Assembly: GCA_049472195.1 (NCBI GenBank)
Contig: JBLIRG010000026.1
Location: 1-40,010 of the forward strand
Length of the DNA stretch: 40,010 nucleotides
From: Thermoplasmatota archaeon
GTDB taxonomy: Archaea; Thermoplasmatota; Penumbrarchaeia; Penumbrarchaeales; Penumbrarchaeaceae
Direction of reading: 5' to 3'
Position 1 is the stretch's first letter, and the number at the start of each line of letters is the position of its first letter. Positions 17,222-40,010 of the stretch are shown here, in pieces. Both the position numbers and the translations under genes were made by a program. The notes beneath the pieces were generated by a model. That model searched no databases. It was given only the letters and a program-made list of their open reading frames with translations, and had not been told where the DNA came from.

Positions 17222-17306
17222 TTAAAGATCATAGTACCAAATATAAACATATTCATATGATTTTCACCCAATCGTTTTTTTACAACTTCCACTTACACCT
17301 CTCGAG

Positions 17307-20967: not shown

Positions 20968-22074
20968 TCATATCCTTACCAGATCGTAATCGGATGACCC
21001 CATACCGAGCTCCTCGGCGTAGGTGATCTGAAGATAACCGTTGGTCTTCTCCCTCATTCCCTTGAATTTATCCTTTCCAGGTTCATGGTTCTTCTTCAGC
21101 TTCGTATCGAGAAATCCCTGGCTTGAATTGACGAGATCGTAGGAAGCCCTGTCAATGGCCACCGGATCCCTGGATGCCAGGATCCCTATGTCGGGAACTA
21201 TCGGATGATCGCTCCATGAGAAGCAGTCGCAGTCGGGGGATATCTTCAACAGGAAATTGATGTAACCGCATCTGTCCCTCTTCCCGTCCACAGCTCCGTA
21301 TGCGTATTCCACCATTCTTTCCATAAACGGGTCGATCTCGGATTCCCAGTCCAATCCTATGGCATCTGCTGGACATACGGTCATGCACTCGCCGCATCCG
21401 ATGCATTTCTCCCTTACTATGAAGGATTTCCCGCCCTCGATGTGCGGTGCGTCCACCGGGCAAATATCCAGGCACTCTCCGCAGCCAATGCATCTGGCGG
21501 CCGCGACCTTGGGTCTTGCCGAGTGCTGGTCCATCTTGCCGTAGGCGGTTGCGCATCCCATTGCAAGGTTCTTGATCGCACCCCCGAAACCGGCCATCTC
21601 GTGGCCTTTGAAATGGCTCATCACGATCATCGAATCGGCCCGGTGAATATCTCCGGCGATCCTCAGGCTTCCGAAGTGCTTTCCGGCCATCTTGACATTG
21701 ACCAGGTTCTTTCCCGTAAGCCCGTCTGCGATTATGATCGGGGCCCCCACTACAGCGTAGTCGAATCCGTGAAGCACTGCCGTCTCGATGTGATCCACCG
21801 AATTGTGCCGGCTTCCCTTGTACAAGGTATTCGTATCGGTAAGGAAAGGTCTTCCTCCGGATTCCTTTATGCGATCAACGACCGGTCTGACGAATATGGG
21901 ATTGATGAACGCATCCCCGCCCATCTCCCCGAAGTGGATCTTGACGGCAGTGAGATCATCTTTCTTGATCAGGTCACTAAAACCAGCCCTGTCGAACAAT
22001 TTACCGATCTTGCTCGCCTTGTTGCTCCCAGTATTCCTTGCCTTCAGATCAGCGAAGTAAACCTCTGATGCCAT
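20968..22074 (-). CDS. DUF362-domain protein with two [4Fe-4S] ferredoxin-type cluster motifs
   Basis: 368 aa. Two CxxCxxCxxxCP motifs (CIGCGECLDICPV, CIGCGECMTVCPA) embedded in a DUF362-like scaffold. Confidence 0.55.
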   Translation of the reverse strand: MASEVYFADLKARNTGSNKASKIGKLFDRAGFSDLIKKDDLTAVKIHFGEMGGDAFINPIFVRPVVDRIKESGGRPFLTDTNTLYKGSRHNSVDHIETAVLHGFDYAVVGAPIIIADGLTGKNLVNVKMAGKHFGSLRIAGDIHRADSMIVMSHFKGHEMAGFGGAIKNLAMGCATAYGKMDQHSARPKVAAARCIGCGECLDICPVDAPHIEGGKSFIVREKCIGCGECMTVCPADAIGLDWESEIDPFMERMVEYAYGAVDGKRDRCGYINFLLKISPDCDCFSWSDHPIVPDIGILASRDPVAIDRASYDLVNSSQGFLDTKLKKNHEPGKDKFKGMREKTNGYLQITYAEELGMGSSDYDLVRI

Positions 22075-22690
22075 ACAGATGCCCCCGTATATCTTGTATC
22101 ATCTCGGAAACCGTGAGTTATCCTTATGGCGAAAACATTATTTTATTCTTTCAAAATAAATGGTTGAATGGCGACTGAACTGCGATAGACGCATTTTTTC
22201 AAAAGGTTTGGCGGGGAATTAACCCCGCCGTTTTCCTCTCTTCCCTTTACTCACCCGTGGGGTGGGTCCCATAACCTCCGTTGTTCAGAGGATCGTCATA
22301 TACAATGAGGTCCGTCCTTCGGGACCGATAATGATCCGCATCATTGATCCGGATCTTCACATGGCGAATGTTCTGATATCAATTCCCTTGAAAACACTTC
22401 TTCGGCACCTCCTGGATCATTCATCAACATCCGCACATTTTCTCTCCTTTATCACCCGTTGTTTTCATTCTTCATCGTATCCTCGTTTTCCCCGTTCCAC
22501 AATTAATATTATGTTTAAATGATTATATGACTATTTTTAATGACATTAATGAACTTTTATTCTAAAATTCAATTATAAATACGGATCTTGGATCCCTTGC
22601 ATGTTTTCAAACTACAGGATCGGGGATCATAATATGATCGGGATTCCCGCGGAAATATCAGAAAAGTATATATATGGATTATGGAAAACT

Positions 22691-22889
22691 ATCGGATTTT
22701 TCAATTTAGTTATATACTCTTGATATTGATATAAAACATAGAGGCGAGGGGGCTCCCCGGAGTGCAATGGTACGGGCCTTCCGGAAAGCCCTTGAAATCC
22801 CTCTAGATAGTATAGTACACATATGGTATTAGAAGATGTCGAAAAAAAACGAGGGATTCCGCCTGAAAAACGCAAAGGAGGTGAAAATA
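22691..22889 (+). promoter_or_regulatory. Conserved roughly 200-nt upstream element, copy A: GGATTTTTCAAT box, TATA box, GTGCAATGGTACGGGCC and CTTGAAATCCC blocks, AGGAGGTGA Shine-Dalgarno
   Basis: Block-wise homologous, with conserved spacing (box to GTGCAAT 71-72 nt; GTGCAAT to ATG 124-128 nt), to copy B at 25935-26133. Confidence 0.6.
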
Positions 22890-23027
22890 ATGGAAAGGAG
22901 AACCGACAATGCATCTGACCGCGATGGAGGCATATTCTACGATTGGTTCCCAACGGAGGAGATAATTGCGCCCTCGTATCTGGTCCTCAGACTCATCAAC
23001 CTGTACTCGTTCAGGTATCCGAGATGA
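22890..23027 (+). CDS. Small ORF A (45 aa), hypothetical peptide MERRTDNASDRDGGIFYDWFPTEEIIAPSYLVLRLINLYSFRYPR
   Basis: Strong Shine-Dalgarno AGGAGGTGA 7 nt upstream. The start region (ATGGAAAGGAG vs ATGGAAGAGGA) and the C-terminal ...LYSFRYPR motif are homologous to small ORF B (…MYNCRYPRC). Confidence 0.45.
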   Translation: MERRTDNASDRDGGIFYDWFPTEEIIAPSYLVLRLINLYSFRYPR

Positions 23028-23145
23028 ACTGCAGGGAGATCTTGACAATCAAGGACAGGCGAGAACATCGGAATAAACCGAAAAAGGGGAGAATGACAGA
23101 AAAACTTATATAGGCCTGCAATAAAACTATAGGATTTCTGATAAA

Positions 23146-23179
23146 CCATATATATACTCCCCAATGATACTTCATCTGA
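23146..23179 (+). promoter_or_regulatory. Third copy of the island promoter motif (ATAGGATTTCTGATAAACCATATATATACTCC)
   Basis: Shares ATMGGATTT box plus a TATATA box about 14 nt downstream with copy A (22691-22724) and copy B (25935-25967). Confidence 0.45.
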
Positions 23180-23227
23180 GGGTGGGGGAACGGAGCGGGG
23201 ATTGAATGCGTAAAAAGCCCGAAATAA

Positions 23228-23285
23228 AACGGAAAGAAACGGGTTCCGCCCATTTCTTTCCGTTACCATTTTCAACTTATTTTCC
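23228..23285 (+). terminator. Hairpin (16-bp imperfect inverted repeat AACGGAAAGAAACGGG / CCCATTTCTTTCCGTT) followed by T-rich tract
   Basis: Stem 23228-23243 and 23249-23264, loop TTCCG, then ACCATTTTCAACTTATTTTCC. Lies about 50 nt downstream of the third promoter copy. Confidence 0.45.
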
Positions 23286-23389
23286 ATATTTGAGAATATT
23301 CTAATGAATTATCATTATTCGCGAAATATTCCGATCCCGAATGGAAAAATTATATCTATACTACTACCCATTCTAAGATCGAGGGCTGT

Positions 23390-24754
23390 ATGAAGATAGA
23401 TAGAGAATCCCAGGTAATGTACGGAGTTCACCTCCTACTCGGTGTCGATGACTACTCAAGGGGACATGACAAGCAGGAGCTTTCGAACGCACTCGGAATA
23501 TCAAGCAACACGCTCGATCTCTATCTTGCCCATCTTTCAAAGCGGGATCTGATCAACAGGAAGAAATCAAGATACCAGAAGGAGATCAGACAGATCATAA
23601 AATTGACCGAGGAGGGGGCAAAGGAGGTTCAGAAGATCGAATCGGACATCAACAAACTCCTCCTTACCAACGAGCGGCACAATATTCCCAACTGCATAAA
23701 CGTAACAGATATTCTGAGCAGGATCCCCGATCCCCTCGCGAAGATATTCTTCCTTGCGGTCTACAACAAATACAAGAGCTTCGATCTGCCGATGTTCCTG
23801 GAGACGCTGAGGATCTCCAAGCAGGATGTGAACATAATCAACCTCTTTCCGGGATCAGAGGGAAGCTATTCCGATACAGGAAGAATCCCCCTTATCGAAT
23901 CGATATTCAAAACATGTTTCTACGGGGATATCGACTGTGAAATATTGGACACCGATGTCTGGGGCGAGAAGGATATCGATGCATTTCTCGTCGTCGCCGA
24001 GGCCAGGCTCAAACAGGGAAAGCTCAAAGACGCGGAGATGATTTATGATTATATTCTGTCACCTAAACTCGAGATCACTCAGAACCAATGGTTTATAGCA
24101 CGCCTGGGAATGGTAAACATACTGCGAAGACAGGGCAAATTCGATGAAGCTTTGGAGCAGCTCGATGAGATTCACGACATGGTCGATGACAGCGTATACC
24201 AGGCCTTCATAAAGGAGAACAAAGCCTTGATCTACACCATAACCTACCAAAATCAGAAATCCATGGATATGTTCAAAAGGTCAATAGCATCATTCACCAC
24301 TCATGGCCTACCACTTATGCTTTCTATCGCATACAATAACCGCGGGACCTGTTACTTCAGGATGGAAGATTACCAGAATGCGGAGAAGGACTGGATCAAA
24401 GCGAGAAAATTCGCCAAGAAAGCACAGTCCGCTTACTGCGAGGCTGCCATCCTGTGCAATCTATCGGATACGACTGCCATGAAGGGAAAGATAGATCTTG
24501 CTGTCAAATATCTCAATAAGGCCTTCAAGATATTCAAGGAGATTCCTGATTACGAGGGAATGGCAAGTGTTTACTACAACTTCTCACTCCTTTATCTTGA
24601 GAGCGGGCAGCTTGAAAACGCATTGGAAAATTTCCGAAATTCGATTACGGTTGCAGAACCTCTTCCTTCTGATTTTGAAAAGAAAGACTGGAGAAAAACC
24701 TTCATCCAGAGGGGGAAGGACCACGGTTTCGACTCTATAGAAAATATAATATAA
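23390..24754 (+). CDS. wHTH-TPR protein (N-terminal winged helix DNA-binding domain plus C-terminal tetratricopeptide repeats)
   Basis: 454 aa. N-terminus ELSNALGISSNTLDLYLAHLSKRDLINRKKS is HTH-like. C-terminal half has multiple 34-residue TPR-like units (for example AYNNRGTCYFRMEDYQNAEKDWIKARKFAKK, LCNLSDTTAMKGKIDLAVKYLNKAFKIFKE, YYNFSLLYLESGQLENALENFRNSI). TATA-like box about 35 nt upstream. Confidence 0.6.
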   Translation: MKIDRESQVMYGVHLLLGVDDYSRGHDKQELSNALGISSNTLDLYLAHLSKRDLINRKKSRYQKEIRQIIKLTEEGAKEVQKIESDINKLLLTNERHNIPNCINVTDILSRIPDPLAKIFFLAVYNKYKSFDLPMFLETLRISKQDVNIINLFPGSEGSYSDTGRIPLIESIFKTCFYGDIDCEILDTDVWGEKDIDAFLVVAEARLKQGKLKDAEMIYDYILSPKLEITQNQWFIARLGMVNILRRQGKFDEALEQLDEIHDMVDDSVYQAFIKENKALIYTITYQNQKSMDMFKRSIASFTTHGLPLMLSIAYNNRGTCYFRMEDYQNAEKDWIKARKFAKKAQSAYCEAAILCNLSDTTAMKGKIDLAVKYLNKAFKIFKEIPDYEGMASVYYNFSLLYLESGQLENALENFRNSITVAEPLPSDFEKKDWRKTFIQRGKDHGFDSIENII

Positions 24755-24823
24755 TGATCATTATTATTCACAAATGGATTGAAATATTCAATCAATTTGA
24801 ATAAATATGTGGGGTGATGTGAT

Positions 24824-25420
24824 TTGGTAAAAAAAGCGTTAATCATCATTTCCGATGATTACCACGGAATGACCAATGGTTTCGAATTGGAAAAAGCGGA
24901 AAGGCTCAGAGATGATTTGAGAAGCAAGGGATGGATCGTTAATAGTGACGATAATTCAAATGATCAGATCGTGGTCAATAGAAATGATTTTTTAGCTCTC
25001 AGGGATTGGTTGAGGGACCACCCAAACCAGCCGGATGATGAATTTCTCGTGTATATCGCCGACCAGACCCATCTGATTGCCGGAGACGATATCAAGATAT
25101 CATTTTCGACTGGAGAGGCGAATATTGTCGATGAGATCGACTATGAATTCAAAGATCATCTTTGTGTTGAGTTCACACTCGTATTTGGGGGTCCAAAATC
25201 GGGAGGTGCCATCCATGATCAGACACATCTCGGACCAAAATGTCTTGTGATATGCTCGATGCATGAATCAGAGGATTATAATGATGATCTGTTTGATCTT
25301 CAGTACAGCCTCATGGGAGATAATTTCCTGGAGGCTGGAAGACAGGAAAGGGCCAGGCTGCTTCTTGAGAATCCTGTACAACACGTACAATTGAAGAATA
25401 GGAACAATCCGGTACCGTGA
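24824..25420 (+). CDS. Hypothetical protein (198 aa), possibly a caspase-like (peptidase C14-type) fold. Start uncertain (TTG at 24824; first ATG is Met16)
   Basis: N-terminal strand KKALIIISDDY, then helix ELEKAERLRDDLRSKGWIVN, then DEFLVYIADQTH (His position) and KCLVICSMHE (Cys position). These follow the strand/His/Cys order of caspase-like domains. Internal repeat DQTHL appears twice. Confidence 0.35.
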   Translation: MVKKALIIISDDYHGMTNGFELEKAERLRDDLRSKGWIVNSDDNSNDQIVVNRNDFLALRDWLRDHPNQPDDEFLVYIADQTHLIAGDDIKISFSTGEANIVDEIDYEFKDHLCVEFTLVFGGPKSGGAIHDQTHLGPKCLVICSMHESEDYNDDLFDLQYSLMGDNFLEAGRQERARLLLENPVQHVQLKNRNNPVP

Positions 25421-25434
25421 ACGAACATCGGCAG

Positions 25435-25740
25435 TTAATGATTTTTAATCCAGCTGCCGATGATTATTCCTTTTTCTTTTCTCAATTTATCCTTTTTTTC
25501 CTTAATATATTCGTATTCTTCTTCGTTTTTGATTTTATGGATCATCGCGTCGAGGTCCATCCTCTCTATTTTGCATACCTCGCTGTACATCGCACGAATT
25601 GCCCTGACTCTCCTCCTCCCCGCACATTTCGGCAAAGGCCTTTCCGGTCTTTCACCATCGATGTAACCGTTGTATATCTCCCTGATTATATCCTTGTTCG
25701 TTTTACCCATTTCAATTCCCTCCTGATCAAACAATATCAT
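25435..25740 (-). CDS. Hypothetical small basic protein (101 aa)
   Basis: ORF MILFDQEGIEMGKTNKDIIREIYNGYIDGERPERPLPKCAGRRRVRAIRAMYSEVCKIERMD...KEKKDKLRKEKG. TATA-like ATTTATAT about 25 nt upstream on the minus strand, so possibly leaderless. The plus-strand overlapping ORF is poly-Phe junk. Confidence 0.4.
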   Translation of the reverse strand: MILFDQEGIEMGKTNKDIIREIYNGYIDGERPERPLPKCAGRRRVRAIRAMYSEVCKIERMDLDAMIHKIKNEEEYEYIKEKKDKLRKEKGIIIGSWIKNH

Positions 25741-25934
25741 ATGAAAAAGGAAATATAAATAGATAAAGGATTGTGTTCTTCAGGAAATATAATCTTCATT
25801 TAGTTCAAATAATGTTAAAATATTCTCATATTTATACATTCATGGCAGGTCGAATATTCAATTAGGATAGGATAAATAATGCATGATATGGGAAAAAGCG
25901 GAGAGTAAACCTTATATATGCCTTTCCGGAAAAT

Positions 25935-26133
25935 ATAGGATTTTTCAATCCCCTTATATATCCTGATAGCCGATATTCAATTGCAGCGAGGAGGAATGCC
26001 GACCGGTGCAATATGGTACGGGCCCGGGCGGCGATCCTTTGAAATCCCGAAAGATCCGAACCGGATCGTCATGATCCCGGGGGGGATCGGTGGGGATTTC
26101 TTCCGCTAGAAAATACCGAAAGGGGGTGTAGTG
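25935..26133 (+). promoter_or_regulatory. Conserved roughly 200-nt upstream element, copy B (ATAGGATTTTTCAAT box, TTATATAT, GTGCAATATGGTACGGGCC, CTTTGAAATCCC, GGGGGTG Shine-Dalgarno)
   Basis: Homologous to copy A with conserved block order and spacing. Confidence 0.6.
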
Positions 26134-30925: not shown

Positions 30926-31054
30926 ATGATGAAAATCAATGCGGTGCACCGTATGCTCGATCTCTTCATCTGCCCCGAACGCGGATGTCACTGGCACGGA
31001 CCGGATGAAGAAGACGCGAGGAATATCCAACCTGAGGACAGCGAGGACTGGTAA
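30926..31054 (+). CDS. Small ORF (42 aa) homologous to the C-terminal part of the 8-Cys zinc-ribbon domain (fragment or mini-protein), immediately upstream of NfnA-like gene
   Basis: MMKINAVHRMLDLFICPERGCHWHGPDEEDARNIQPEDSEDW aligns with KIHIEAMHHKLDFFFCSKRGCRWHGLDYENITDIVLEDSNEW (C-terminus of 33958..34380) and with ...LIPFFICLRYGCGWHGL of the NfnB N-terminal domain. TAA stop at 31052-31054, 1 nt before the GTG of the next gene. Confidence 0.45.
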   Translation: MMKINAVHRMLDLFICPERGCHWHGPDEEDARNIQPEDSEDW

Positions 31055-31055
31055 C

Positions 31056-31892
31056 GTGTACGAGATCATAAGGAAAGAGGAGATGGCGAACGGGTCCGTC
31101 ATCCGCTTCGATATAAGGGCTCCCAATATAGCTGACAAGATCAAACCGGGGCAGTTCGTGATAATCAGAACCCATGAGGGAGGGGAAAGGATACCTCTGA
31201 CCGTGGCCGATAAGGACAGCGAGAGGGGGACCATTGCCATAATATTTCAGGTGGTCGGAAAGACCACCGCTCTGATGAGATCACTTGACAGGGGGGATGG
31301 CCTCAGGGATGTGGCGGGACCTCTCGGACTGCCGTCCGACCTCAAGAACGTGGGGACCGCGGTTGTGGTCGGCGGTGGAACGGGGGTGGCAATCCTGCAC
31401 CATATCACGAAGGGCCTCCGAGAGTCCGGGAACAGGATAGTGGGGATCATAGGAGCCAAGAGCAGCGATTTCCTGATCCTGAAGGATGAGATGGAGGATC
31501 TCTGCGACGAGCTCATCATTACTACCGATGACGGAAGCGTGGGGATTCACGGATTCGTCACTCAGCCGCTGGAAGAACTGCTTAAAAGCGGCGAAGAGAT
31601 CAATGAGGTGTTTGCAATTGGGCCCATCGTGATGATGAAGAACGTCGCATCGCTTACGAAGCCCTACGGGATCAAAACGGTGGTCAGCCTGAACCCGGTC
31701 ATGATCGACGGTACCGGGATGTGCGGGTGCTGCAGGGTAATAATAGACGGAAAGATGAAATTCTGCTGCGTTGACGGGCCGGAATTCGACGGCCATACGG
31801 TGGATTTCGAGAAGCTGATGCTCAGAAATTCCATGTTTCAGAACGAGGAGAGGGAATCCATTCTTTCATCCATTTCACTGAGGGGGCACTGA
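31056..31892 (+). CDS. NfnA/SudB-like subunit (FAD/NAD(P)-binding ferredoxin-NADP reductase-like with [2Fe-2S]); PyrK-like fold
   Basis: GTG start 31056 (VYEIIRKEEMANGSVIRFDIRAP..., PyrK/NfnA-like N-terminus). C-terminal GTGMCGCCRV...KFCCVDGPEFDGH cluster motif. The longer ORF from 30939 overlaps the upstream small ORF in another frame. Confidence 0.75.
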   Translation: MYEIIRKEEMANGSVIRFDIRAPNIADKIKPGQFVIIRTHEGGERIPLTVADKDSERGTIAIIFQVVGKTTALMRSLDRGDGLRDVAGPLGLPSDLKNVGTAVVVGGGTGVAILHHITKGLRESGNRIVGIIGAKSSDFLILKDEMEDLCDELIITTDDGSVGIHGFVTQPLEELLKSGEEINEVFAIGPIVMMKNVASLTKPYGIKTVVSLNPVMIDGTGMCGCCRVIIDGKMKFCCVDGPEFDGHTVDFEKLMLRNSMFQNEERESILSSISLRGH

Positions 31893-33676
31893 TGTCCGAA
31901 ACAGATGTTCACTACATGATGTTCAGGTCGCACCTGAGCACCTATTGCCCGCACTGCCGCCAGACCTTCAACGTCAAGATCAAGGGGGAGGAACACCTGC
32001 ACTTCAAGGGTGTTTTCAAGGGAAAGGAGGTCGATATCAAGCTCAGCCCGTACCTGGATGTGTTCGAGAAGGAGACATCCGTTCCCATGGACGAACAGGA
32101 CGTCTTATCCGACATGTTCTGTCCCAAATGCAAGAACAGCCTCCTCATCGGGAACAAGAAATGCGAGGAATGCGGATCGCCGGCGGGGGAGCTGATATTG
32201 TCCGCATTCTCGAAACTGATCCCTTTCTTCATCTGTTTGAGGTATGGATGCGGATGGCACGGGCTGACAAAGGCGGACGAGCACAGCATAAAGCTCAAGA
32301 TCCCAAGACAGGATATGCCGGAGCAGGACCACAAGCTGAGGGTCCACAACTTCAAGGAGGTTCCGCTGGGATACACCTCCAAGAAGGCCATGCTCGAGGC
32401 CGGAAGGTGCCTCCAGTGCATCAATCCCCAGTGTGTGCAGGGATGCCCGGTGAATGTCGATATTCCGGCATTCATACAGAAGATCCGGGAGGATAACTTT
32501 CTCGGGGCTGCCAAGAAGATCAAGGAGAAGAACATACTCCCTGCTGTCTGCGGAAGGGTATGCCCGCAGGAGGAGCAGTGCGAGTTGAAATGCGTCCTCG
32601 GCATACGGGATAAACCGGTTGCGATAGGAAACCTGGAGAGATTTGTAGCCGACTACGAGAGGGAGATGGGGACCAAGGATTTCCCCAAGATCAAGGATAC
32701 AAGGGAAAAAAAGGTGGCAGTGGTTGGTTCGGGACCGGGGGGCCTAACATGCGCCGCCGATCTCGTGTGGCTGGGATATGATGTCACTGTCTTCGAGGCT
32801 TTTCACGAGGCCGGCGGAGTTCTGAAATACGGCATCCCCGAGTTCAGGCTTCCGAAGGTCATCGTACAGAACGAGATCGAGTTCCTCAAGGAGATGGGGT
32901 GCAGGATCGAGCTCAACAGCGTCATTGGAAACATATACACCGTGGATGAGCTGCTCGAGAAGTTCGACGCGGTATACATCGGTGTGGGAGCTGGGCTCCC
33001 GAGGTTCATGGGACTCGAGGGGGAGGACTTCAACAATATCGTTTCGGCCAACGAGTACCTTACCAGGATCAATCTCATGAAGGCATACAAGTTCCCGGAG
33101 GTCGACACCCCTCTTCCCAGGGGAGAGAAGGTCATCGTTCTCGGAGCGGGAAACGTTGCGATGGATTCGGCCAGATCTGCTCTTCGGTCCGGAGCGAAGT
33201 CGGTAACGATAATCTACCGGAGATCACGGGACGAGATGCCGGCCAGGAACGAGGAGATCAGGCATGCGGAGGAGGAAGGTGTCAAGTTCCTGTTCCTGAC
33301 AAATCCGGTGAGGTTCCTAGGCGACAAGAAAGCCTGCGTGAAGGGTATTGAATGTCAGAGAATGAGACTGACGGAGCCTGACGAAAGCGGGCGGCGGAAA
33401 CCCATCCCCGTCGAGGGGGACAATTTCATCGTGGATGCCGATCTTGTGGTCGTATCGATCGGCGCCAATGCCAATCCCCTGGTTTTCAGGACGTCTCCCG
33501 ATATTAAGAGGAACAACTGGGGCTACATCGAGGTTGATCCCGAGACCATGGAGACATCGAAACCCTTCGTATTCGCGGGTGGAGATATTGTGACCGGATC
33601 GGCCACGGTCATACAGGCCATGGGGGCCGGAAGGAAGGCCGCAAGATCCATCCATGAGAAGCTTTCACCGGAATGA
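31892..33676 (+). CDS. NfnB/GltD-like subunit (two [4Fe-4S], FAD, NAD(P)H-binding) with an extra roughly 135-aa N-terminal 8-Cys zinc-ribbon domain
   Basis: Residues about 139-594 match NfnB/SudA/GltD (MPEQDHKLRVHNFKEVPLGYT, CLQC..PQCVQGCPVNVDIP, CGRVCPQEEQCELKC, VAVVGSGPGGLTCA, VIVLGAGNVAMD). The N-terminal 135 aa (YCPHC...CPKCK...CEEC...FFICLRYGCGWHG) is an additional domain homologous to ORF 33958..34380. 1-nt overlap with the upstream stop. Confidence 0.8.
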   Translation: MSETDVHYMMFRSHLSTYCPHCRQTFNVKIKGEEHLHFKGVFKGKEVDIKLSPYLDVFEKETSVPMDEQDVLSDMFCPKCKNSLLIGNKKCEECGSPAGELILSAFSKLIPFFICLRYGCGWHGLTKADEHSIKLKIPRQDMPEQDHKLRVHNFKEVPLGYTSKKAMLEAGRCLQCINPQCVQGCPVNVDIPAFIQKIREDNFLGAAKKIKEKNILPAVCGRVCPQEEQCELKCVLGIRDKPVAIGNLERFVADYEREMGTKDFPKIKDTREKKVAVVGSGPGGLTCAADLVWLGYDVTVFEAFHEAGGVLKYGIPEFRLPKVIVQNEIEFLKEMGCRIELNSVIGNIYTVDELLEKFDAVYIGVGAGLPRFMGLEGEDFNNIVSANEYLTRINLMKAYKFPEVDTPLPRGEKVIVLGAGNVAMDSARSALRSGAKSVTIIYRRSRDEMPARNEEIRHAEEEGVKFLFLTNPVRFLGDKKACVKGIECQRMRLTEPDESGRRKPIPVEGDNFIVDADLVVVSIGANANPLVFRTSPDIKRNNWGYIEVDPETMETSKPFVFAGGDIVTGSATVIQAMGAGRKAARSIHEKLSPE

Positions 33677-33957
33677 TATCCATGGATGTCGCCCATGATT
33701 CATGCGGTTGAATCGCTATGCTTTCGGGATGCTTCTGTTTTCAATAATCAGCGTGTTATTCAATAAATTTTAGATTATTTCATAATATTGAATGGATTGA
33801 AAACGGGGCAGAAAAACACACGGGGATTTCTCCTGCTGAAAATCTGTTAGGAGCGGATATGTCCGACTTGTCAACACTTTTAATTTATGCATTATAAAGT
33901 ATATAAATGTCAGAATTATTAAATATCCAGATTCCATATTACCCAGGGGGGCGTTCT

Positions 33958-34380
33958 ATGGGAAAAGAACATTCAGACACCTATATAATAAGATCGGGCT
34001 CGTATCTGAACACATACTGTCCCCACTGCGAGGAGGGATTGAACGAGGATCTCCATGTGACGTTCAGTATCATCAATACATACGGCGAGGAGGGGACGCT
34101 CAAGCTCAGCCCCTACCTGAACGTGTTCACCAAGGAGAGCACGGTCAGGCTCCCGGAGGATGTGAACCTCCGTGACGTTCTATGCCCAAAATGTAAAAAG
34201 AGCCTCATTTTGGATGAGAGACGGTGCACGAAATGTGATTCCCGCGTCGCAAAGATACACATTGAGGCGATGCATCACAAGCTGGATTTCTTTTTCTGCT
34301 CCAAGAGGGGATGTCGATGGCACGGGCTTGATTACGAGAACATAACCGACATCGTCCTGGAGGATTCGAATGAGTGGTGA
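33958..34380 (+). CDS. Standalone 8-Cys zinc-ribbon domain protein (about 140 aa; alternative start 33907 gives 157 aa)
   Basis: MGKEHSDTYIIRSGSYLNTYCPHCEEGL...KLSPYLNVFTKESTV...LCPKCKKSLILDERRCTKCDS...FFFCSKRGCRWHG. Motif-for-motif homologous to the NfnB N-terminal extension. GGGGGG Shine-Dalgarno 8 nt before the 33958 ATG. A TATA-like AGTATATAA sits too close to the 33907 ATG. Confidence 0.6.
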   Translation: MGKEHSDTYIIRSGSYLNTYCPHCEEGLNEDLHVTFSIINTYGEEGTLKLSPYLNVFTKESTVRLPEDVNLRDVLCPKCKKSLILDERRCTKCDSRVAKIHIEAMHHKLDFFFCSKRGCRWHGLDYENITDIVLEDSNEW

Positions 34381-34507: not shown

Positions 34508-35011
34508 ATGGACGAAGGACACGAGAGCAGTGATGAGCAGACATTGAAGATCATCGAAAAACACGGATCGGACATCAAGAACCTGATCCCCATCCTTCAG
34601 GAGGTCCAGGAGATATACGGTTATCTTCCGGCCCCTGCGATCACGACCATCGCGGATGAACTTCAGATATCGGAGGATGTTATCTTCGGAGTGGCCACCT
34701 TCTACACTCATTTCAAATTCACACAGCCCGGGGAGCATGTTATCAAGGCGTGCCTGGGAACAGCCTGTTTTGTCAAAGGGGCCGATAATCTGCTCGAGAT
34801 ACTGAAGGACCGGTTCGGGATAGAACCGGGAGAGACCTCGGCGGATAACAGCGTCTCACTTGAGAGGGTGGCATGTCTGGGCTGCTGTGCGCTTGCCCCG
34901 ACCATCGTGGTCGACGATGAGGTTCACGGCAACATGAGCTCGGTGAAGCTTACCAAGATAATCGACGAGCTGATGGAGGAAAAGGGCGGGGAAGAGGAAG
35001 GGGGGAACTGA
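34508..35011 (+). CDS. NuoE/HydC-like thioredoxin-fold [2Fe-2S] ferredoxin subunit
   Basis: 167 aa. Cluster motifs ACLGTAC and CLGCCALAP at NuoE-typical spacing. GGAGTGA Shine-Dalgarno. Confidence 0.8.
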   Translation: MDEGHESSDEQTLKIIEKHGSDIKNLIPILQEVQEIYGYLPAPAITTIADELQISEDVIFGVATFYTHFKFTQPGEHVIKACLGTACFVKGADNLLEILKDRFGIEPGETSADNSVSLERVACLGCCALAPTIVVDDEVHGNMSSVKLTKIIDELMEEKGGEEEGGN

Positions 35012-35013
35012 TA

Positions 35014-36858
35014 ATGAAGCATACCCTACTGGTCTGCCAGGGAACCGGATGCATGTCATCAAGATCGCACAAGATCACCAAGGAGCTGCAATCGGTGATA
35101 GATTCCAGGGGGATGGGGGATGAAGTGGAGGTCAAACTTACGGGATGCCACGGTTTCTGCCAGCGGGGCCCCATCGTCGTCGTCGAACCCGAGGGCACCT
35201 TCTACTGCCACGTATCACCCGAGGATGCCGCGGAGATCATCGACAGTGACATAGTCGGGGGAAAACCGATCGAACGCCTGTTCTACGAGGATCCCGTATC
35301 CGGAAAGAAAATCCGGCATTACCGGGATATCGCGTTTTACAAGGAGCAGGAGAGGCTGATCCTCAGGAACTGCGGGCACATCAATCCGGAGAGCATTGAT
35401 GACTACATTTCCAAGGACGGGTACAAGGCCCTCGAAAGGGCCTTGAAGAAAATGTCCCGGCTCGATATAATCGAGGAGGTCAAGAATTCCGGTCTGAGGG
35501 GGAGGGGCGGTGCCGGTTTCTCCACCGGTATGAAGTGGAAGTTCGCATACGATGCCCCCGGTGATGAGAAATACATGATATGCAACGCTGATGAAGGGGA
35601 TCCCGGGGCCTTCATGGACAGATCCACGCTGGAGGCCGATCCCCACTCGGTCCTTGAGGGGATGATAATCGCCGGATATGCGATAGGGGCCCATCTCGGA
35701 TATATCTATGTCAGGAAGGAATATCCCCTGGCGATATTGAGGCTTCACATTGCCATCAGGCAGGCGAAGGAGCGGGGATTCCTCGGATCCGACATACTCG
35801 GATCGGGATTCGATTTCGACATCGAGATCATGGAGGGAGCGGGTGCATTCGTTTGCGGGGAGGAGACCGCCCTTATCGCCTCGATCATGGGAATGCGGGG
35901 CATGCCCCATCCGAGGCCGCCCTTTCCGGCGCAGAAGGGATTATGGGGGAAACCCACTAACATCAACAACGTCAAAACCCTAGCAACGGTCCCGGCCATA
36001 ATCCTCAACGGGGCCGAATGGTACAGCTCGATCGGAACCGAGAACACCAGGGGGACCGCCGTGTTCGCCCTCACGGGAAATATCAGGAACTCGGGACTGG
36101 TCGAGGTCCCGATGGGGACCTCTCTTCGGAAGATCATCGAGGATATCGGCGGGGGAATCCCGGACGGAAAGAAATTCAAGGCTGTTCAGACTGGAGGTCC
36201 GTCCGGAGGGTGCCTCCCGGAGGATTCGCTTGACAGGATCGTCGATTTCGAATCCCTGAAGGAAGCGGGGACAATAATGGGATCGGGCGGCATGATCGTC
36301 ATGGACGAGGGAACCTGCGTGGTGGATGTGGCACACTACTTCATCTCGTTCACCCAGGAGGAGTCCTGCGGCAAGTGCTCTCCGTGCAGGATCGGGACCA
36401 AGCAGATGCTGGACGTGCTCACCAGGATCAAGAACGGGAGGGGGACCGGGGAAGACCTCGACCAACTGGCATCCCTCGCATGGACGGTTCAGAACGGATC
36501 CCTCTGCGCCCTGGGCCAAACGGCCCCGAATCCCGTACTGACAACACTGCGATATTTCCGTGAGGAGTACGAGGAGCATATCAAAGAGGGGAAATGCAGA
36601 TCCCTCGTATGCAAGCCCCTGATCCAGTATGTCATCGACGAGGAGAAGTGCATCGGATGCGGGGCATGTCAGAGGAGATGCCCGGTGAAGGCCATTTCGG
36701 AAACGGATGCCCCCGTGACCGCAATTCCCGGCGGAAAGAACATGATCAGGTCCATCGATCCGTCGATATGCGTCCGGTGCGGCCTATGCATCGAGACCTG
36801 CCCCCCAAAGGTCAAGGCGATCTCCAAGATCTCTCCCGTCAGGGGAGGTGGTGCCTGA
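35014..36858 (+). CDS. NuoF/HydB-like flavoprotein subunit (N-terminal Trx-like [2Fe-2S], FMN/NAD(P)H-binding core with [4Fe-4S], C-terminal 2x[4Fe-4S] ferredoxin domain)
   Basis: LLVCQGTGCMSS...GCHGFCQRGP (2Fe-2S). GLRGRGGAGFSTGMKWKF (FMN/NADH). ESCGKCSPCRIG (N3 cluster). CIGCGACQRRCP and CVRCGLCIETCP. Start 3 nt after the NuoE-like stop. Confidence 0.85.
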   Translation: MKHTLLVCQGTGCMSSRSHKITKELQSVIDSRGMGDEVEVKLTGCHGFCQRGPIVVVEPEGTFYCHVSPEDAAEIIDSDIVGGKPIERLFYEDPVSGKKIRHYRDIAFYKEQERLILRNCGHINPESIDDYISKDGYKALERALKKMSRLDIIEEVKNSGLRGRGGAGFSTGMKWKFAYDAPGDEKYMICNADEGDPGAFMDRSTLEADPHSVLEGMIIAGYAIGAHLGYIYVRKEYPLAILRLHIAIRQAKERGFLGSDILGSGFDFDIEIMEGAGAFVCGEETALIASIMGMRGMPHPRPPFPAQKGLWGKPTNINNVKTLATVPAIILNGAEWYSSIGTENTRGTAVFALTGNIRNSGLVEVPMGTSLRKIIEDIGGGIPDGKKFKAVQTGGPSGGCLPEDSLDRIVDFESLKEAGTIMGSGGMIVMDEGTCVVDVAHYFISFTQEESCGKCSPCRIGTKQMLDVLTRIKNGRGTGEDLDQLASLAWTVQNGSLCALGQTAPNPVLTTLRYFREEYEEHIKEGKCRSLVCKPLIQYVIDEEKCIGCGACQRRCPVKAISETDAPVTAIPGGKNMIRSIDPSICVRCGLCIETCPPKVKAISKISPVRGGGA

Positions 36859-39203
36859 TGAAGATCACCATCGACGGGGTGGAAGCACCCTTCGAGAAAG
36901 GGCAGACCATACTGGACGCCGCGGTTGATGCCGGCATCTACATACCGACCCTTTGCGCCCACAAGGATCTTCCGGCGTTCGGTGCATGCAGACTCTGCGT
37001 CGTGAAGGTGGAGGGCATGAGGGGATTTCCCCCCGCCTGCTCGACCCCCGCAACAGACGGGATGGTCGTCCGAAACGACGATGATGAGGTCAGGGACCTC
37101 AGAAGGAATATACTTCGGCTCATCCTGATAGAACACCCCCATTCCTGCATAGTATGCAGCTCGAGGGCGGAATGCGAGGATACCCGGGGAGGGCCGGTCA
37201 AGGCAGGCAGGATCACCGGCTGCTCCATGTGCCCCAACAAGGAGATCTGCGAGATAAGGGAGGTTTCGCATTTCCTGGGAATCGCGGACATGGACATTCC
37301 GATGGAATACAAGAGCCTGGATGTAGAGAGGTTCGATCCCTTTTTCGACAGGGACTACAATCTCTGCATCCTGTGCGGAAGATGCGTTCGAATGTGCCAG
37401 CAGATCCAGGGGGTCGGCGCGATCGCTTTCACCAAGAGGAGCCACAACACCAAGGTGGGAACGATCTTCGGAAGGACGCATCTCGAAGGGGCCTGCAGGT
37501 TCTGCGGTGCCTGCATCGATGTCTGCCCCACGGGTGCACTGTCGCCCAAGGGAAGCAAATGGCACGGAAAGGCTGACTCATCGATCGAGTCCATATGCAC
37601 CTTCTGTTCCATGAACTGCGCCATGATATTCGAGGAGAAGTGGGGAAGGATCATGGCGGCGATCCCCGACCGCAGCAAACCCCAGAGCAGGGCTTACGCC
37701 TGCGTATACGGCAGGTTCTGCATACCGGCCTTCCTCAACGGACCGGAAAGACTTCATTACCCGCTCATAAGAAAGAGGGGCAGGCTGACTCCCGTTTCAT
37801 GGGATGAGGCTTTCCAGTTCATCGGGAACTCCCTGAAAAGGTTCGCGCCGGAGGATATCGGGTTCCTTGCCTCGCCTTATATCACGAATGAGAGCGCCTA
37901 TCTGATGAACAGGCTGGCCAGGGACGTGATCGGAACCCACAACATTGATATTCTTTCAAGGTTCGGAAGGGTGGTCCTCCAGTATCTCGCAGGAAAAGGC
38001 AGGATGCTGTCACGGTGGACCACTCTGGAGGATGTGGAACAGGCCGATTGGATCATGCTCGTGAGCAACGACATGGTGTTCACACATCCGGGAATGCCTG
38101 TTGCCATTCACAAGGCCAGGGAGAACGGTGCCAGCATCATTGTGGTTGACGACATGAAAAATGTCCTTGACGTCGAATCGGACATGCATGTCAGGATCGA
38201 GCCGGGATCGCTCAGAACCTTCCTTGCCGCCCTGACGAAACAACTTCTCAACAGCGTGAAGGAGACGGATTTCGAGGAGCTCGACTCGTTCATAGACTTC
38301 AGGAGATCACTGGACCGGTTGAAGATGATAGATGCCATAAGGCTCACGGGGGTGATGGAGAGGGAATATGAGACGATCCGGGATACCATGATGTCCTCGA
38401 AGAAGGGGGTGATCATGGTAGGGTCCAGGATAATGGAGGACCCGACCCCGACCCAGATCCTGGGCGAGGTCAATGATATCCTTACCATTCTGGGCAAGGA
38501 CAAGGGTTTCATACCCCTCCTGGAGGAGGGAAACGTCAGGGGAGTGGCAGATTCCGGGTGCCTTTACGGATACAGGCCTGGATACGCGAAGGACAGGACG
38601 GGCGGAAAGGATTATCTCAGGATGATCACGGGGATCAGGAGAGGCGACCTTCAGGCCCTGTTCATCAACGAGAGTTCGGTCCCTCCGGAGCAGCTGAGAG
38701 GGGCCAAGTTCATAGTGCTCTCGGAGATATATCCGTCCGATCTGGATGCCATGGCCGACGTGATCCTGCCGTCAGCGGCCTTCTCCGAGGAAAACGGTCA
38801 CTTCTCATCATTTGACGGCCGGCCCTGGGAGATCCGAAAAGCGGTCGATCCCCCCGGCATGGCCCTTCAGGAGTGGGAGATATTAAGCGGACTCGCGAAG
38901 AGCCTTGGGTCCGAGGAATTCAGTTATGAGTCGCCCGAGGACATAATGAAGGAGATGAGCGAGAGGATCGATTTTTTCTCGGGCAAGGAGCGGCCCCCGG
39001 TACCCGAAAGGAGGGAACTTCTTCCGGTTCTCGAGCCCGATTCCCTTCATCTCACGGAGCACACGCCGTATGTGGTCAGATACAGGGGCACTCCCATTCA
39101 TGACCGCGTGGAGGATCTCAGGGTCTACCTGGAGGAGAACGACAGGATCCCCAAGGAGGAGGAGCCGATCGAGGACGCCGAATTCACCAGGGGGGTGGAC
39201 TGA
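36858..39203 (+). CDS. NuoG/FdhA-like subunit: N-terminal [2Fe-2S], His-ligated [4Fe-4S], two [4Fe-4S], then molybdopterin-oxidoreductase-like domain lacking the catalytic Cys/Sec (non-catalytic)
   Basis: Start ATG 36858 overlaps the NuoF-like stop (CTGATG). The upstream part of the 36594 ORF is a frame overlapping NuoF. Cluster motifs CAHKDLPAFGACRLC...C, HPHSCIVCSSRAEC, CILCGRCVRMC, CRFCGACIDVCP, ICTFCSMNCAM...YAC. Where formate dehydrogenases have R-V-(U/C)-H-G the sequence reads SRFGRVVLQY (Val at the ligand position, about 37974-37976). Confidence 0.75.
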   Translation: MKITIDGVEAPFEKGQTILDAAVDAGIYIPTLCAHKDLPAFGACRLCVVKVEGMRGFPPACSTPATDGMVVRNDDDEVRDLRRNILRLILIEHPHSCIVCSSRAECEDTRGGPVKAGRITGCSMCPNKEICEIREVSHFLGIADMDIPMEYKSLDVERFDPFFDRDYNLCILCGRCVRMCQQIQGVGAIAFTKRSHNTKVGTIFGRTHLEGACRFCGACIDVCPTGALSPKGSKWHGKADSSIESICTFCSMNCAMIFEEKWGRIMAAIPDRSKPQSRAYACVYGRFCIPAFLNGPERLHYPLIRKRGRLTPVSWDEAFQFIGNSLKRFAPEDIGFLASPYITNESAYLMNRLARDVIGTHNIDILSRFGRVVLQYLAGKGRMLSRWTTLEDVEQADWIMLVSNDMVFTHPGMPVAIHKARENGASIIVVDDMKNVLDVESDMHVRIEPGSLRTFLAALTKQLLNSVKETDFEELDSFIDFRRSLDRLKMIDAIRLTGVMEREYETIRDTMMSSKKGVIMVGSRIMEDPTPTQILGEVNDILTILGKDKGFIPLLEEGNVRGVADSGCLYGYRPGYAKDRTGGKDYLRMITGIRRGDLQALFINESSVPPEQLRGAKFIVLSEIYPSDLDAMADVILPSAAFSEENGHFSSFDGRPWEIRKAVDPPGMALQEWEILSGLAKSLGSEEFSYESPEDIMKEMSERIDFFSGKERPPVPERRELLPVLEPDSLHLTEHTPYVVRYRGTPIHDRVEDLRVYLEENDRIPKEEEPIEDAEFTRGVD

Positions 39204-40010
39204 TGGTGCGCGAATACAAGATCATCGAGAAATACGAGGAGGTTCCAAACGTACACAAGTTCGTCATCAGGGATCCCAGCATAGCAAAGAAGGCGAGGGC
39301 CGGGCAGTTCGTACTGGTCATGGCGAACGAGAAAGGGGAGAGGATCCCCCTGACGCTGTCGGACTGGGACGAGAAGGATGGGACGATCACTCTTTATGTA
39401 CTGGAACTGGGAGTATCCACGATGGAGCTGATATCCCTACGTAAAGGGGATTCGCTCCACAGTCTTGCAGGTCCCCTGGGCCATCCTGCGAGGGTCGAGA
39501 AGTTCGGAAACGTTCTCCTGGGCGGAGGCTGCTTCGGCATCGGCGGGATCTACCCCATCGCCAAGGCGATGAAGAAGGCCGGAAACCATGTAACGGTCAT
39601 AATGGAGGCGAGGAGCAATTACCTCCTCTACAACCAGGAAAAACTCAGATCGACGGCCGACGATTTCCACATAACAACCTCCGACGGCTCGGCGGGTGTT
39701 AAAGGTCACGTGGAGAAGAAGATGCAGGAACTGATCGAGGAGGGAGGAAAATTCGATCACGCGTACTTCATGGGATGCACCTTCATGCTGATGCAGTGCT
39801 CCAAATCAACTCAGCCCCATAATATTCCCACCGGCGTTGCCCTTAACGCTATCATGCTGGATGGTACCGGGATGTGCGGGTGCTGTCGTGTCTCTCTCGG
39901 CGAGGAGACAAAGTTCGTATGTGTTGACGGTCCGGAGCTTGACGGCCATCTTGTTGACTGGGAGGAGCTCTTCATCAGGAAGCATATATACCGCGAGGAG
40001 GAAGCAGTTT
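39203..40010 (+). CDS. Second NfnA/SudB-like subunit (partial; runs off the window end)
   Basis: ATG 39203 overlaps the upstream TGA. MVREYKIIEKYEEVPNVHKFVIRDPSIAKKARAGQFVLVMANEKGERIPLTLSDWD... and ...DGTGMCGCCRVSLGEETKFVCVDGPELDGH, paralogous to 31056..31892. No stop within the window. Confidence 0.75.
   Translation, partial: MVREYKIIEKYEEVPNVHKFVIRDPSIAKKARAGQFVLVMANEKGERIPLTLSDWDEKDGTITLYVLELGVSTMELISLRKGDSLHSLAGPLGHPARVEKFGNVLLGGGCFGIGGIYPIAKAMKKAGNHVTVIMEARSNYLLYNQEKLRSTADDFHITTSDGSAGVKGHVEKKMQELIEEGGKFDHAYFMGCTFMLMQCSKSTQPHNIPTGVALNAIMLDGTGMCGCCRVSLGEETKFVCVDGPELDGHLVDWEELFIRKHIYREEEAV

Follow-up and report, generated by a model that had tools for sequence, protein, structure and literature searches.

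A Bfu-type gene cluster joined to NfnS and NfnL in a Thermoplasmatota archaeon: a candidate five-subunit electron-bifurcating complex linked to NADP(H)

We analysed a 40,010-nucleotide stretch of DNA from a Thermoplasmatota archaeon (GenBank assembly GCA_049472195.1, contig JBLIRG010000026.1, positions 1 to 40,010; hereafter the window), a whole contig of a metagenome-assembled genome that ends in four closely spaced genes for proteins resembling NuoE, NuoF, NuoG and NfnS (the last also named NfnA). An original prediction, made from the letters of the sequence, had regarded these genes as a candidate electron-bifurcating complex of the Bfu/Stn type. Our analysis indicates that the locus probably encodes one soluble flavo-iron-sulfur complex of five subunits, in which the proteins BfuC, BfuB and BfuA are combined with NfnS and NfnL and NADP(H) (nicotinamide adenine dinucleotide phosphate) is the third substrate. 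Functional claims throughout this text rest on sequence, synteny and gene fusions. The combination of BfuABC with NfnSL is an undescribed design within the Bfu family and not categorically new. The type is not in the Bfu catalogue of Schut et al. (Suppl. Table 1: Codh, FdhFeFe, F420, Fdh, FeFe, Mbh, Nfn (ABC), NiFe, Nuo, Por, Rub, Wor; PMC9304861), and no description of such an enzyme was found in the literature searched, where absence is no proof of absence.

The four-gene arrangement at positions 34508-40010 (Table 1) is real, and a chance pattern is excluded. Pfam covered each domain that had been named in the original prediction, with E-values of 1e-7 to 1e-46. Overlaps had been proposed for all three gene junctions; one-base stop/start overlaps (TGATG) were confirmed at 36856-36860 and 39201-39205, while the junction at 35011/35014 turned out to be a gap of 2 nucleotides (TGA-TA-ATG). 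The real start of BfuA is the ATG at 36858, as in all homologues, and a longer mechanical open reading frame (ORF) from 36594 was discarded. Protein P0001 (781 aa) was 100% identical to the BfuA of the window. The gene for NfnL (NfnB) is expected past the contig end, and the downstream context was taken from relatives with 79-82% identity in BfuA.

The Bfu family is characterised by a BfuBC core, in which BfuB carries the iron-sulfur (Fe-S) clusters B1-B5 and specific motifs for flavin mononucleotide (FMN) and NADH; non-bifurcating NuoF, FdsB and HoxF are without the B1-B5 set and the Bfu FMN/NADH motifs (PMC9304861). In BfuB of the window, Pfam recognised Complex1_51K (2.5e-46) and NADH_4Fe-4S together with a thioredoxin-like 2Fe-2S domain at the N-terminus and 2x[4Fe-4S] at the C-terminus, the latter two being the extra domains already read from the sequence in the original prediction. 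The protein carries CNADEGDPGAFMDRS and GAGAFVCGEETAL, which correspond to the signatures that PMC9304861 (Suppl. Figs 9-10) shows for Bfu enzymes only, and both FMN/NADH motifs, DEGDPGAFMDR and GAGAFVCGE (with Phe, not Tyr), were present in its translation. Ligands for the clusters were found in the B1 motif CGKCSPC...CALG, in the series Cys...His...Cys...Cys of the [2Fe-2S] cluster B2 (C(GTCVVDV)...H(EEHI)...C...C(KCRSLVC), comprising GTCVVDV and EEHIKEGKCRSLVC), in the two C-terminal CxxCxxCxxxCP motifs of the [4Fe-4S] clusters B3/B4 (CIGCGACQRRCP and CVRCGLCIETCP), and in the residues C8/C13/C45/C49 of the N-terminal [2Fe-2S] cluster B5. The gene cluster also holds the other members expected of the family, a NuoG-like BfuA and a BfuC with one [2Fe-2S] cluster, for which the Cys ligands C-x4-C...C-x3-C could be read in the translation. 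Among all PDB sequences, the nine best matches of BfuB scored 659-818 bits, and non-bifurcating NuoF/FdsB reached no more than 416 bits. These nine were all B subunits of bifurcating Bfu enzymes, namely those of NiFe-Bfu of Acetomicrobium mobile (the best, with 818 bits), HydABC of A. woodii, T. kivui and T. maritima, NfnABC of Thermococcus sibiricus (Tsi) and Caldicellulosiruptor saccharolyticus (Csac), S. ovata Stn, and the NuoF-like 9mqx_B. Motifs, cluster ligands and PDB neighbours agree with the earlier assignment to the NuoF-based bifurcating enzymes, and by these features the NuoF-like subunit of the window is a Bfu-type BfuB.

BfuA resembles a formate dehydrogenase (FDH) with a degenerate active site. 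Its Pfam matches were Fer2_4, NADH-G_4Fe-4S_3, Fer4_Nqo3, Molybdop_Fe4S4 and Molybdopterin (2.1e-41); neither PF01568, the C-terminal pterin-dinucleotide-binding domain, nor a Pyr_redox or Fer4_20 domain was found in the Pfam scan. The top PDB sequence match was FdsA of R. capsulatus (3.9e-72, residues 3-705). In the HMMER alignment to FdsA, the molybdenum (Mo) ligand Cys386 stands opposite Gly370 and the adjacent His387 opposite Arg371, and when 87 NuoG/Fdh-like sequences were aligned with MAFFT, the window showed L-S-R-F-(gap)-G-R-V-V in place of the FDH motif C-A-R-[LV]-(C/U)-H-x-x-T. No Cys, Sec or His occurs anywhere within HNIDILSRFGRVVLQYLAG. Both alignments thus support the predicted loss of the Mo ligand and the statement that the protein is not a formate dehydrogenase, whereas the Val (RVVL) that had been placed at the ligand position was off by 2-3 residues, Gly370 or a gap being aligned there. 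Beyond the aligned core, BfuA has only about 80 further residues in the MAFFT alignment, compared with about 180 in FDH-type sequences, and in NCBIfam the protein scored below both equivalog cut-offs, with 300 for NuoG (cut-off 470) and 226 for Fdh-alpha (cut-off 666). Invariant in the alignment were the Cys ligands of the [2Fe-2S] cluster, of 2x[4Fe-4S] and of the [4Fe-4S] cluster in the Mo domain as well as the ligands of the His-ligated [4Fe-4S] cluster, in line with the complete set of N-terminal Fe-S motifs noted before. The absence of an [FeFe]-hydrogenase H-cluster was likewise borne out: no Fe_hyd_lg_C domain was matched, and in Pfam, PDB and NCBIfam only the N-terminal Fe-S domains resembled hydrogenase. 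A reading as HydABC hydrogenase was rejected for lack of this domain. The Mo-like domain is dispensable because it is partly deleted in the relatives L016, L021, L036 and L042 and wholly gone in L088. As judged from these alignments, BfuA retains the molybdopterin fold with a dead active site and cannot be catalytic.

A further feature of BfuA is an insertion inside its His-cluster motif, which reads H93-x3-C97-x2-C100-x5-C106-x15-C122-x2-C125-x5-C131. Of these Cys residues, C100, C106 and C122 are added by the insertion and are invariant; ordinary FDH/NuoG sequences are without it. The insertion was present in 24 of the 25 BfuA proteins linked to NfnS. It may represent an additional metal or cluster site, and such an extra cluster may serve for docking flavoproteins of the FNR family. 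The insertion was rejected as a marker confined to loci with NfnSL, since it also occurs in BfuA of Dehalococcoidia/SAR202 and Methanothrix. In the Dehalococcoidia loci L019, L025 and L082, a 248-aa FNR-like gene (PF00175) follows the insertion-bearing BfuA.

The gene order BfuC-BfuB-BfuA-NfnS-NfnL was found in all six sampled homologue contexts (82% down to 36% identity), with the operon ending after NfnL. These contexts were from Thermoplasmatota (L001, L002), Undinarchaeales (L003), Desulfobacteraceae (L004), Thorarchaeota (L005) and a metagenome contig (L006). The original prediction had proposed to look downstream for an NfnB/GltD-like gene, which was there in each of the six, and had named a downstream catalytic subunit of a hydrogenase or formate dehydrogenase as the observation that would speak against it; none of the six sampled operons encoded one, nor any alternative catalytic partner. 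Stop/start overlaps of 1 nucleotide were also present in L001, L002, L003 and L087, and NfnS and NfnL overlap in relatives. A genome-wide scan for NuoG/Fdh-like genes yielded 80 loci, in 18 of which BfuA was directly followed by NfnS and then, with the exception of L013, by NfnL. The lineages concerned were Thermoplasmatota, Undinarchaeota, Asgard archaea (Hodarchaeales too), Desulfobacterota (Desulfocapsaceae), Aminicenantes, Chloroflexi, Bacteroidales, Eubacteriales, Syntrophorhabdus and Hydrogenedentes.

Fusions of the two proteins provided an additional line of evidence. With P0117 (1029 aa) as query, more than 60 distinct clusters at 90% identity were identified as BfuA::NfnS fusions, in which the Molybdopterin/NuoG domains and the NfnS domain are combined in one protein. 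Asgard archaea (Loki-, Hel-, Thor- and others) accounted for most of them, and one was from Hydrogenedentes. The three fusion contexts that were sampled were operons of the form BfuC-BfuB-(BfuA::NfnS)-NfnL. An AlphaFold2 model of a natural fusion reached a predicted local distance difference test (pLDDT) of 85 and a predicted template modelling score (pTM) of 0.84, values that inform on the fold only and not on cluster distances, and Foldseek assigned to the fusion model an FdsA/NuoG/HydA-like fold.

NfnS of the cluster (NfnS#2) was identified by NCBIfam (NF004862, 340 bits vs a cut-off of 220), by the Pfam domain DHODB_Fe-S_bind and by an end-to-end match to the P. furiosus NfnI small subunit (3.1e-78). 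It carries the motif GERIPLT for flavin adenine dinucleotide (FAD), the [2Fe-2S] motif DGTGMCGCCR...CVDGP and a glycine-rich nucleotide loop in modified form (GGGCFGIG). NfnA had previously been presumed to be the NADPH subunit, which had to be corrected, as NfnA/NfnS is the small subunit with NAD(H), FAD and [2Fe-2S] and NADP(H) binds to NfnB/NfnL. The protein bears the signature GGGC110FGIG, IME135ARS and MGC192TF, whose residues C110 (39530-39532), E135 (39605-39607) and C192 (39776-39778) lie in the nucleotide-binding domain. In 23 of 25 linked NfnS, including that of the window, GGGVGxA is replaced by GGC[FY]GxG and VGPxxMM by GC[TN]xxM, and the Gly of canonical NfnS two positions ahead of the conserved Arg/Lys has given way to an acidic residue; the consensus of the Asgard BfuA::NfnS fusions shares this signature. 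All six free NfnS were canonical, namely NfnS#1 of the window, the NfnS of T. maritima and of P. furiosus, and three from relatives. The only linked exceptions, L011 and L012, adjoin a BfuA with the FDH Cys-His motif, and the NfnS of L014 carries the signature about 2 kb downstream of a BfuA with this motif. By its signature, linked NfnS is a distinct, specialised subfamily. In the two exceptional loci, both from Chloroflexi/Dehalococcoidia (L011, 7001-12013; L012, 7001-11924), a full-length BfuA with the Cys-His motif precedes NfnSL of canonical type. These loci may be true Fdh-Bfu with an adjacent Nfn, or may show the ancestral state of the window type.

The NfnL proteins of relatives matched T. 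maritima NfnB from end to end (5.6e-172). All linked NfnL (22/22) carry L-E-R-[FY] with the Nfn-type Glu cluster ligand and PEFR[LM]P with the Arg near N5 of the FAD; NADPH and FAD Rossmann folds, two [4Fe-4S] clusters, the Glu ligand and the Arg were present in NfnL of L001-L005 and others. For the linked NfnL of the window itself, which would lie past the contig, the Glu ligand is expected from relatives at 82-84% identity. A separate Nfn pair of canonical type is encoded upstream in the window, with the motifs GGGTGVA / IGAKS / IGPIVMM in NfnS#1 and LERF and PEFRLP in NfnL#1. The occurrence of two NfnA paralogs had been called unusual; the second paralog is real, but two Nfn pairs, one canonical and one Bfu-linked with the signature, are also present at the locus in the closest relatives, and the two are different in kind. 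The mechanical ORF of NfnS#1 (317 aa) starts about 40 residues before the homology (MRCTVCSISS...), and translation probably begins further in, at a Met close to residue 23.

What we infer from this arrangement is that the five proteins form one complex, that NADP(H) serves as its third substrate, how its centres are wired and which way the electrons run. BfuBC would form the bifurcating core with FMN, the flavobicluster, a site for NAD(H) and the C-terminal 2x[4Fe-4S] for ferredoxin, and BfuA would be a catalytically dead Fe-S conduit derived from formate dehydrogenase. NfnSL would dock on BfuA via NfnS, and the FAD of NfnL would be the third substrate site, for NADP(H). NfnSL is proposed as the third-substrate module because BfuA, which in the Bfu scheme passes electrons from such a module on to BfuBC, is without a catalytic site and NfnSL is the only candidate in the operon, and NfnS is proposed as the anchor on BfuA because of the BfuA::NfnS fusions. 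In the preferred wiring, electrons would pass from the [4Fe-4S] of NfnL through the BfuA chain to B1/FMN, as in Stn; a second NAD(H)-linked branch via NfnS is possible. The net reaction would be an interconversion of NADP(H), NAD(H) and ferredoxin as in transhydrogenases of the Nfn/Stn type, running in peptide-fermenting archaea probably from NADPH to NADH and reduced ferredoxin. Glutamate dehydrogenase genes adjoin the cluster in L003 (2469-5453) and L006 (15095-16438), as does a gene for pyruvate:ferredoxin oxidoreductase in L088 (16-3570), and these neighbours hint at a link to the catabolism of amino acids and 2-oxoacids. A role in NADPH disposal or in balancing of the pools in peptide or 2-oxoacid fermenters is weakly suggested.

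Several known systems share parts of this architecture. The Nfn-Bfu/StnABC enzymes of S. ovata, C. saccharolyticus and T. sibiricus (8OH5, 9BOV, 9N5U) resemble the window type in their BfuBC/HydBC core, which carries the same motifs, in a NuoG/Fdh-like part whose pterin domain is inactive and in an NfnL/GltD-type FAD module for NADP(H), and the same three substrates are expected for both. Stn is composed of three subunits, with the NfnL-like domain fused into BfuA, a Lys ligand at the proximal cluster and no NfnA homologue (PMC10482914), and the FAD of the NfnL-like domain in Stn/NfnABC is non-bifurcating (PMC10482914; PMC12018979). In the window type, by contrast, NfnL is separate and has the Glu ligand, NfnS is present (fused to BfuA elsewhere) and BfuA contains the extra Cys insertion. 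The proposed likeness to Stn/NfnABC was therefore right as to the Bfu type and the link to NADP(H), but the separate NfnS and NfnL and the Glu ligand set the locus apart from the members of Stn. Lys at the ligand position (L-K-R-F) was found in Tsi NfnA and in GltD-like domains between BfuB and BfuA of other loci. Such Stn-like GltD/NfnL-type domains lie between BfuB and BfuA in L012, L030, L031, L036, L053 and L075, and also occur in L072, mostly with the Lys ligand (Ser in L036); L012 and L036 hold both the Stn-like domain and a downstream NfnSL.

Canonical NfnSL/NfnAB (T. maritima 4YLF, P. furiosus NfnI 5JCA) has FAD, [2Fe-2S], 2x[4Fe-4S] and Glu ligands in common with the window and its relatives, but it is a free heterodimer without a HydBC homologue, whereas linked NfnS is remodelled and genetically joined to BfuA. 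Genetic coupling to BfuCBA and the fusions in many lineages suggest that linked NfnSL is not a free-standing heterodimer. The NiFe-Bfu enzyme HydABCSL of A. mobile (7T2R, 'Type 3' Bfu) also contains a non-catalytic NuoG-like BfuA that is fed by extra subunits, which are a [NiFe] hydrogenase pair there and NfnS and NfnL in the window type. FdsABG of R. capsulatus (6TG9) shows the same order of Fe-S domains as BfuA; FdsA has Cys386/His387, bis-molybdopterin guanine dinucleotide (bis-MGD) and the C-terminal domain, none of which is found in BfuA of the window, and FdsB is without the Bfu clusters. In class II benzoyl-CoA reductase (BamB-I), a NuoG-like subunit links a HydBC-type module to another bifurcating flavoprotein module that is unrelated to it; this second module is of the HdrA type with benzoyl-CoA and ETF as outputs, whereas in the window it would be NfnSL, with pyridine nucleotides and ferredoxin only. 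SfrAB of Geobacter sulfurreducens is made up of two subunits, a Mo-less Fdh/NuoG-like subunit and a GltD/NfnL-like NADPH subunit, and has no NuoE/NuoF-type core and no NfnS. An SfrAB-like enzyme, considered as an alternative in the original prediction, differs in composition from the window, where NuoE, NuoF and NfnS are present.

Some observations weigh against the five-subunit complex, for which the main rival is a pair of independent, co-transcribed enzymes, an ordinary NfnSL beside an orphan BfuABC whose third-substrate partner is encoded elsewhere. The cofactor sites of linked NfnSL are all canonical, and the pair is so near to canonical Nfn that a standalone function is conceivable. A crude neighbour-joining tree gave no clean clade of linked NfnL apart from free NfnL, and the idea of a dedicated linked-NfnL clade was dropped for this reason. 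In bacterial examples the genes are separated by intergenic gaps of 140-600 nucleotides. Degenerate BfuA also occurs without NfnSL, e.g. in the Dehalococcoidia loci with the FNR-like gene instead, and the canonical NfnSL beside a Cys-His BfuA in L011 and L012 may reflect adjacency only. We nevertheless regard two separate enzymes as unlikely, because BfuA::NfnS fusions are found repeatedly in both archaea and bacteria and the NfnS signature marks a subfamily that stands beside degenerate BfuA, with L014 as the one other carrier. Furthermore, the window and its relatives already hold a separate canonical Nfn pair, the stop/start overlaps couple the genes, and no other partner is encoded in the sampled operons. 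Far less probable still is that the genes encode an NAD(P)H oxidoreductase that does not bifurcate, such as the NuoEFG N-module of complex I or an NADPH:acceptor reductase like SfrAB. NCBIfam NuoF and NuoG were the top-named matches, and SfrA is likewise a Mo-less Fdh-like protein with a GltD-like subunit; on the other hand, BfuB has the extra clusters B2-B5 and the Bfu motifs, which are missing from all non-bifurcating homologues, and SfrAB has no NuoEF or NfnS partners. The complex I N-module was rejected on the grounds of these extra clusters and of the membrane genes nuoA-N, none of which was found among the window ORFs. Practically no weight is left for an electron-confurcating formate dehydrogenase (FdhA-HydBC), the usual annotation in metagenomes. 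It would be consistent with NAD-dependent FdsA as the best PDB match of BfuA, with the name 'formate dehydrogenase (NADP+) alpha subunit' of homologues in source records and with the category 'FdhA-HydBC' used by Imachi et al. and Nobu et al., but BfuA has neither the Cys/Sec ligand nor the adjacent His nor the C-terminal MGD-binding domain, it scores below the Fdh-alpha cut-off, and its Mo-like domain is deleted in some relatives. For the window, the formate dehydrogenase reading is refuted by the sequence.

A refinement of the five-subunit complex, which we put forward tentatively and do not favour at present, assumes two bifurcation sites in series, the FAD of NfnL and the FMN of BfuBC. The high-potential branch of NfnL would lead through NfnS to NAD+, the low-potential [4Fe-4S] branch would lead to BfuA and not to free ferredoxin, and BfuBC would bifurcate a second time to NAD+ and ferredoxin. 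A paper calculation gives a stoichiometry of about 4 NADPH:3 NADH:1 Fd(2e-), with Fd for ferredoxin, as compared with 2:1:1, or 4:1:3 if the NfnS branch feeds BfuA. In favour of this refinement, the Nfn-type Glu ligand, which is Lys in the non-bifurcating Stn-type domains, and the Arg of PEFR[LM]P are conserved in all 22 linked NfnL, and NfnS is retained throughout with GERIPLT, DGTGMCGxCR...CVDGP and glycine-rich nucleotide loops. There is also a precedent in class II benzoyl-CoA reductase, in which a HydBC-type module is coupled in series to another bifurcating module (bioRxiv 10.64898/2026.04.10.717634; proposed in PMC9304861). Against it stands the remodelling of linked NfnS, whose nucleotide-binding domain has gained two Cys and bears Glu/Asp in place of a Gly, and which may have a changed NAD(H) site or none at all. 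The [4Fe-4S] clusters of Nfn may also differ in potential from what the BfuA chain requires, and the energetics are a calculation on paper. The idea is kept as a minority possibility because linked NfnSL retains all that Stn has lost, namely NfnS, its FAD, its [2Fe-2S] and the Glu ligand. The same tentative standing applies to the wider proposal that two active sites work in series through a dead FDH scaffold with a non-canonical stoichiometry, and that the type is an evolutionary intermediate towards Stn/NfnABC, in which NfnS was lost and Glu was replaced by Lys.

The five-subunit complex might have an additional partner in a small Cys-rich protein encoded just upstream of BfuC (Table 1). NfnL#1 of the canonical pair begins with a Cys-rich domain of about 130 aa (31892-~32290) that is homologous to this protein and contains 8 conserved Cys (TYCPHC...CPKC...CxxC...CxxxxCxWHG). 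L001 and L002 likewise encode a free Cys-rich protein at this place. The protein had no Pfam or NCBIfam match, and the family is rare, with 100 representative clusters of 1.84 billion at E <= 1e-3, many of them tandem duplicates. It may be an accessory protein or a zinc-ribbon or rubredoxin-like partner of NfnL, and because it is fused to NfnL, docking near the [4Fe-4S]/ferredoxin site of NfnL is suggested.

Table 1. Positions of the Bfu-Nfn genes, of segments within BfuA and of other features in the window.
Feature	Position	Strand	Evidence
Canonical-type Nfn pair, NfnS#1	30939-31892	+	Pfam, translation
Canonical-type Nfn pair, NfnL#1	31892-33676	+	Pfam, translation
Small Cys-rich protein, 157 aa, 8 conserved Cys in CxxC-type pairs	33907-34380	+	Homology to the N-terminal domain of NfnL#1
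BfuC (NuoE/HydC-like), [2Fe-2S] thioredoxin-like subunit, 167 aa	34508-35011	+	Pfam 2Fe-2S_thioredx (PF01257), 1.6e-46
BfuB (NuoF/HydB-like), 614 aa	35014-36858	+	Pfam, motifs, PDB matches
BfuA (NuoG/FdhA-like putative Fe-S conduit), 781 aa	36858-39203	+	Pfam, FdsA match
Cys-rich insertion of BfuA, 25 residues	37149-37250 (residues 98-131)	+	Invariant Cys in alignment
Degenerate Mo-ligand segment of BfuA, residues 362-375, NIDILSRFGRVVLQ	37941-37982	+	Alignment to FDH sequences
NfnS/NfnA-like protein #2, 269 of ~296 aa, ends at contig edge	39203-40010	+	NF004862, P. furiosus NfnI-S
Protein of 768 aa	3760-6069	-	Pfam Big_7 as sole match
Protein of 1501 aa	6230-10738	-	Pfam Big_7 as sole match
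Stretches of low G+C content	16001-18000 and 22001-26000		G+C 0.41-0.44 vs ~0.55 elsewhere
DUF362 protein	20968-22074	-	Inserted 2x[4Fe-4S] ferredoxin domain

Elsewhere on the contig, the two stretches of low G+C content hold genes for a GH26-like protein, an M29 peptidase and a TPR protein as well as one ORF without a family match, and may be acquired DNA. The two proteins with bacterial Ig-like Big_7 domains are very large and probably surface proteins. The DUF362 protein adds one more uncharacterised Fe-S protein to the contig.

NfnSL and Bfu/Stn-type enzymes have been treated in the literature as unrelated solutions to the same reaction, and members of the Thermococcaceae have either NfnSL or a Bfu/Stn-type enzyme, never both (PMC9304861). 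At this locus and in its many relatives among Asgard, Thermoplasmatota and DPANN archaea and several anaerobic bacterial phyla, the two are encoded together in one operon, and frequently even in a single polypeptide. The finding also bears on annotation. Imachi et al. and Nobu et al. list 'FdhA-HydBC' and 'NfnAB' as separate functions, and 'FdhA-HydBC' is scored as formate metabolism in Asgard archaea and uncultured anaerobes, although the 'FdhA' of the present family, to judge from its active-site residues, cannot oxidise formate. If the two bifurcation sites did work in series, the enzyme could reduce ferredoxin at potentials far lower than Nfn or Stn can, or would halve the ferredoxin cost per NADPH in the reverse direction. 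If the five subunits form one complex, it would be a Bfu type new to the published catalogue, a plausible ancestor of Stn/NfnABC and a natural test case for the coupling of two bifurcating centres.

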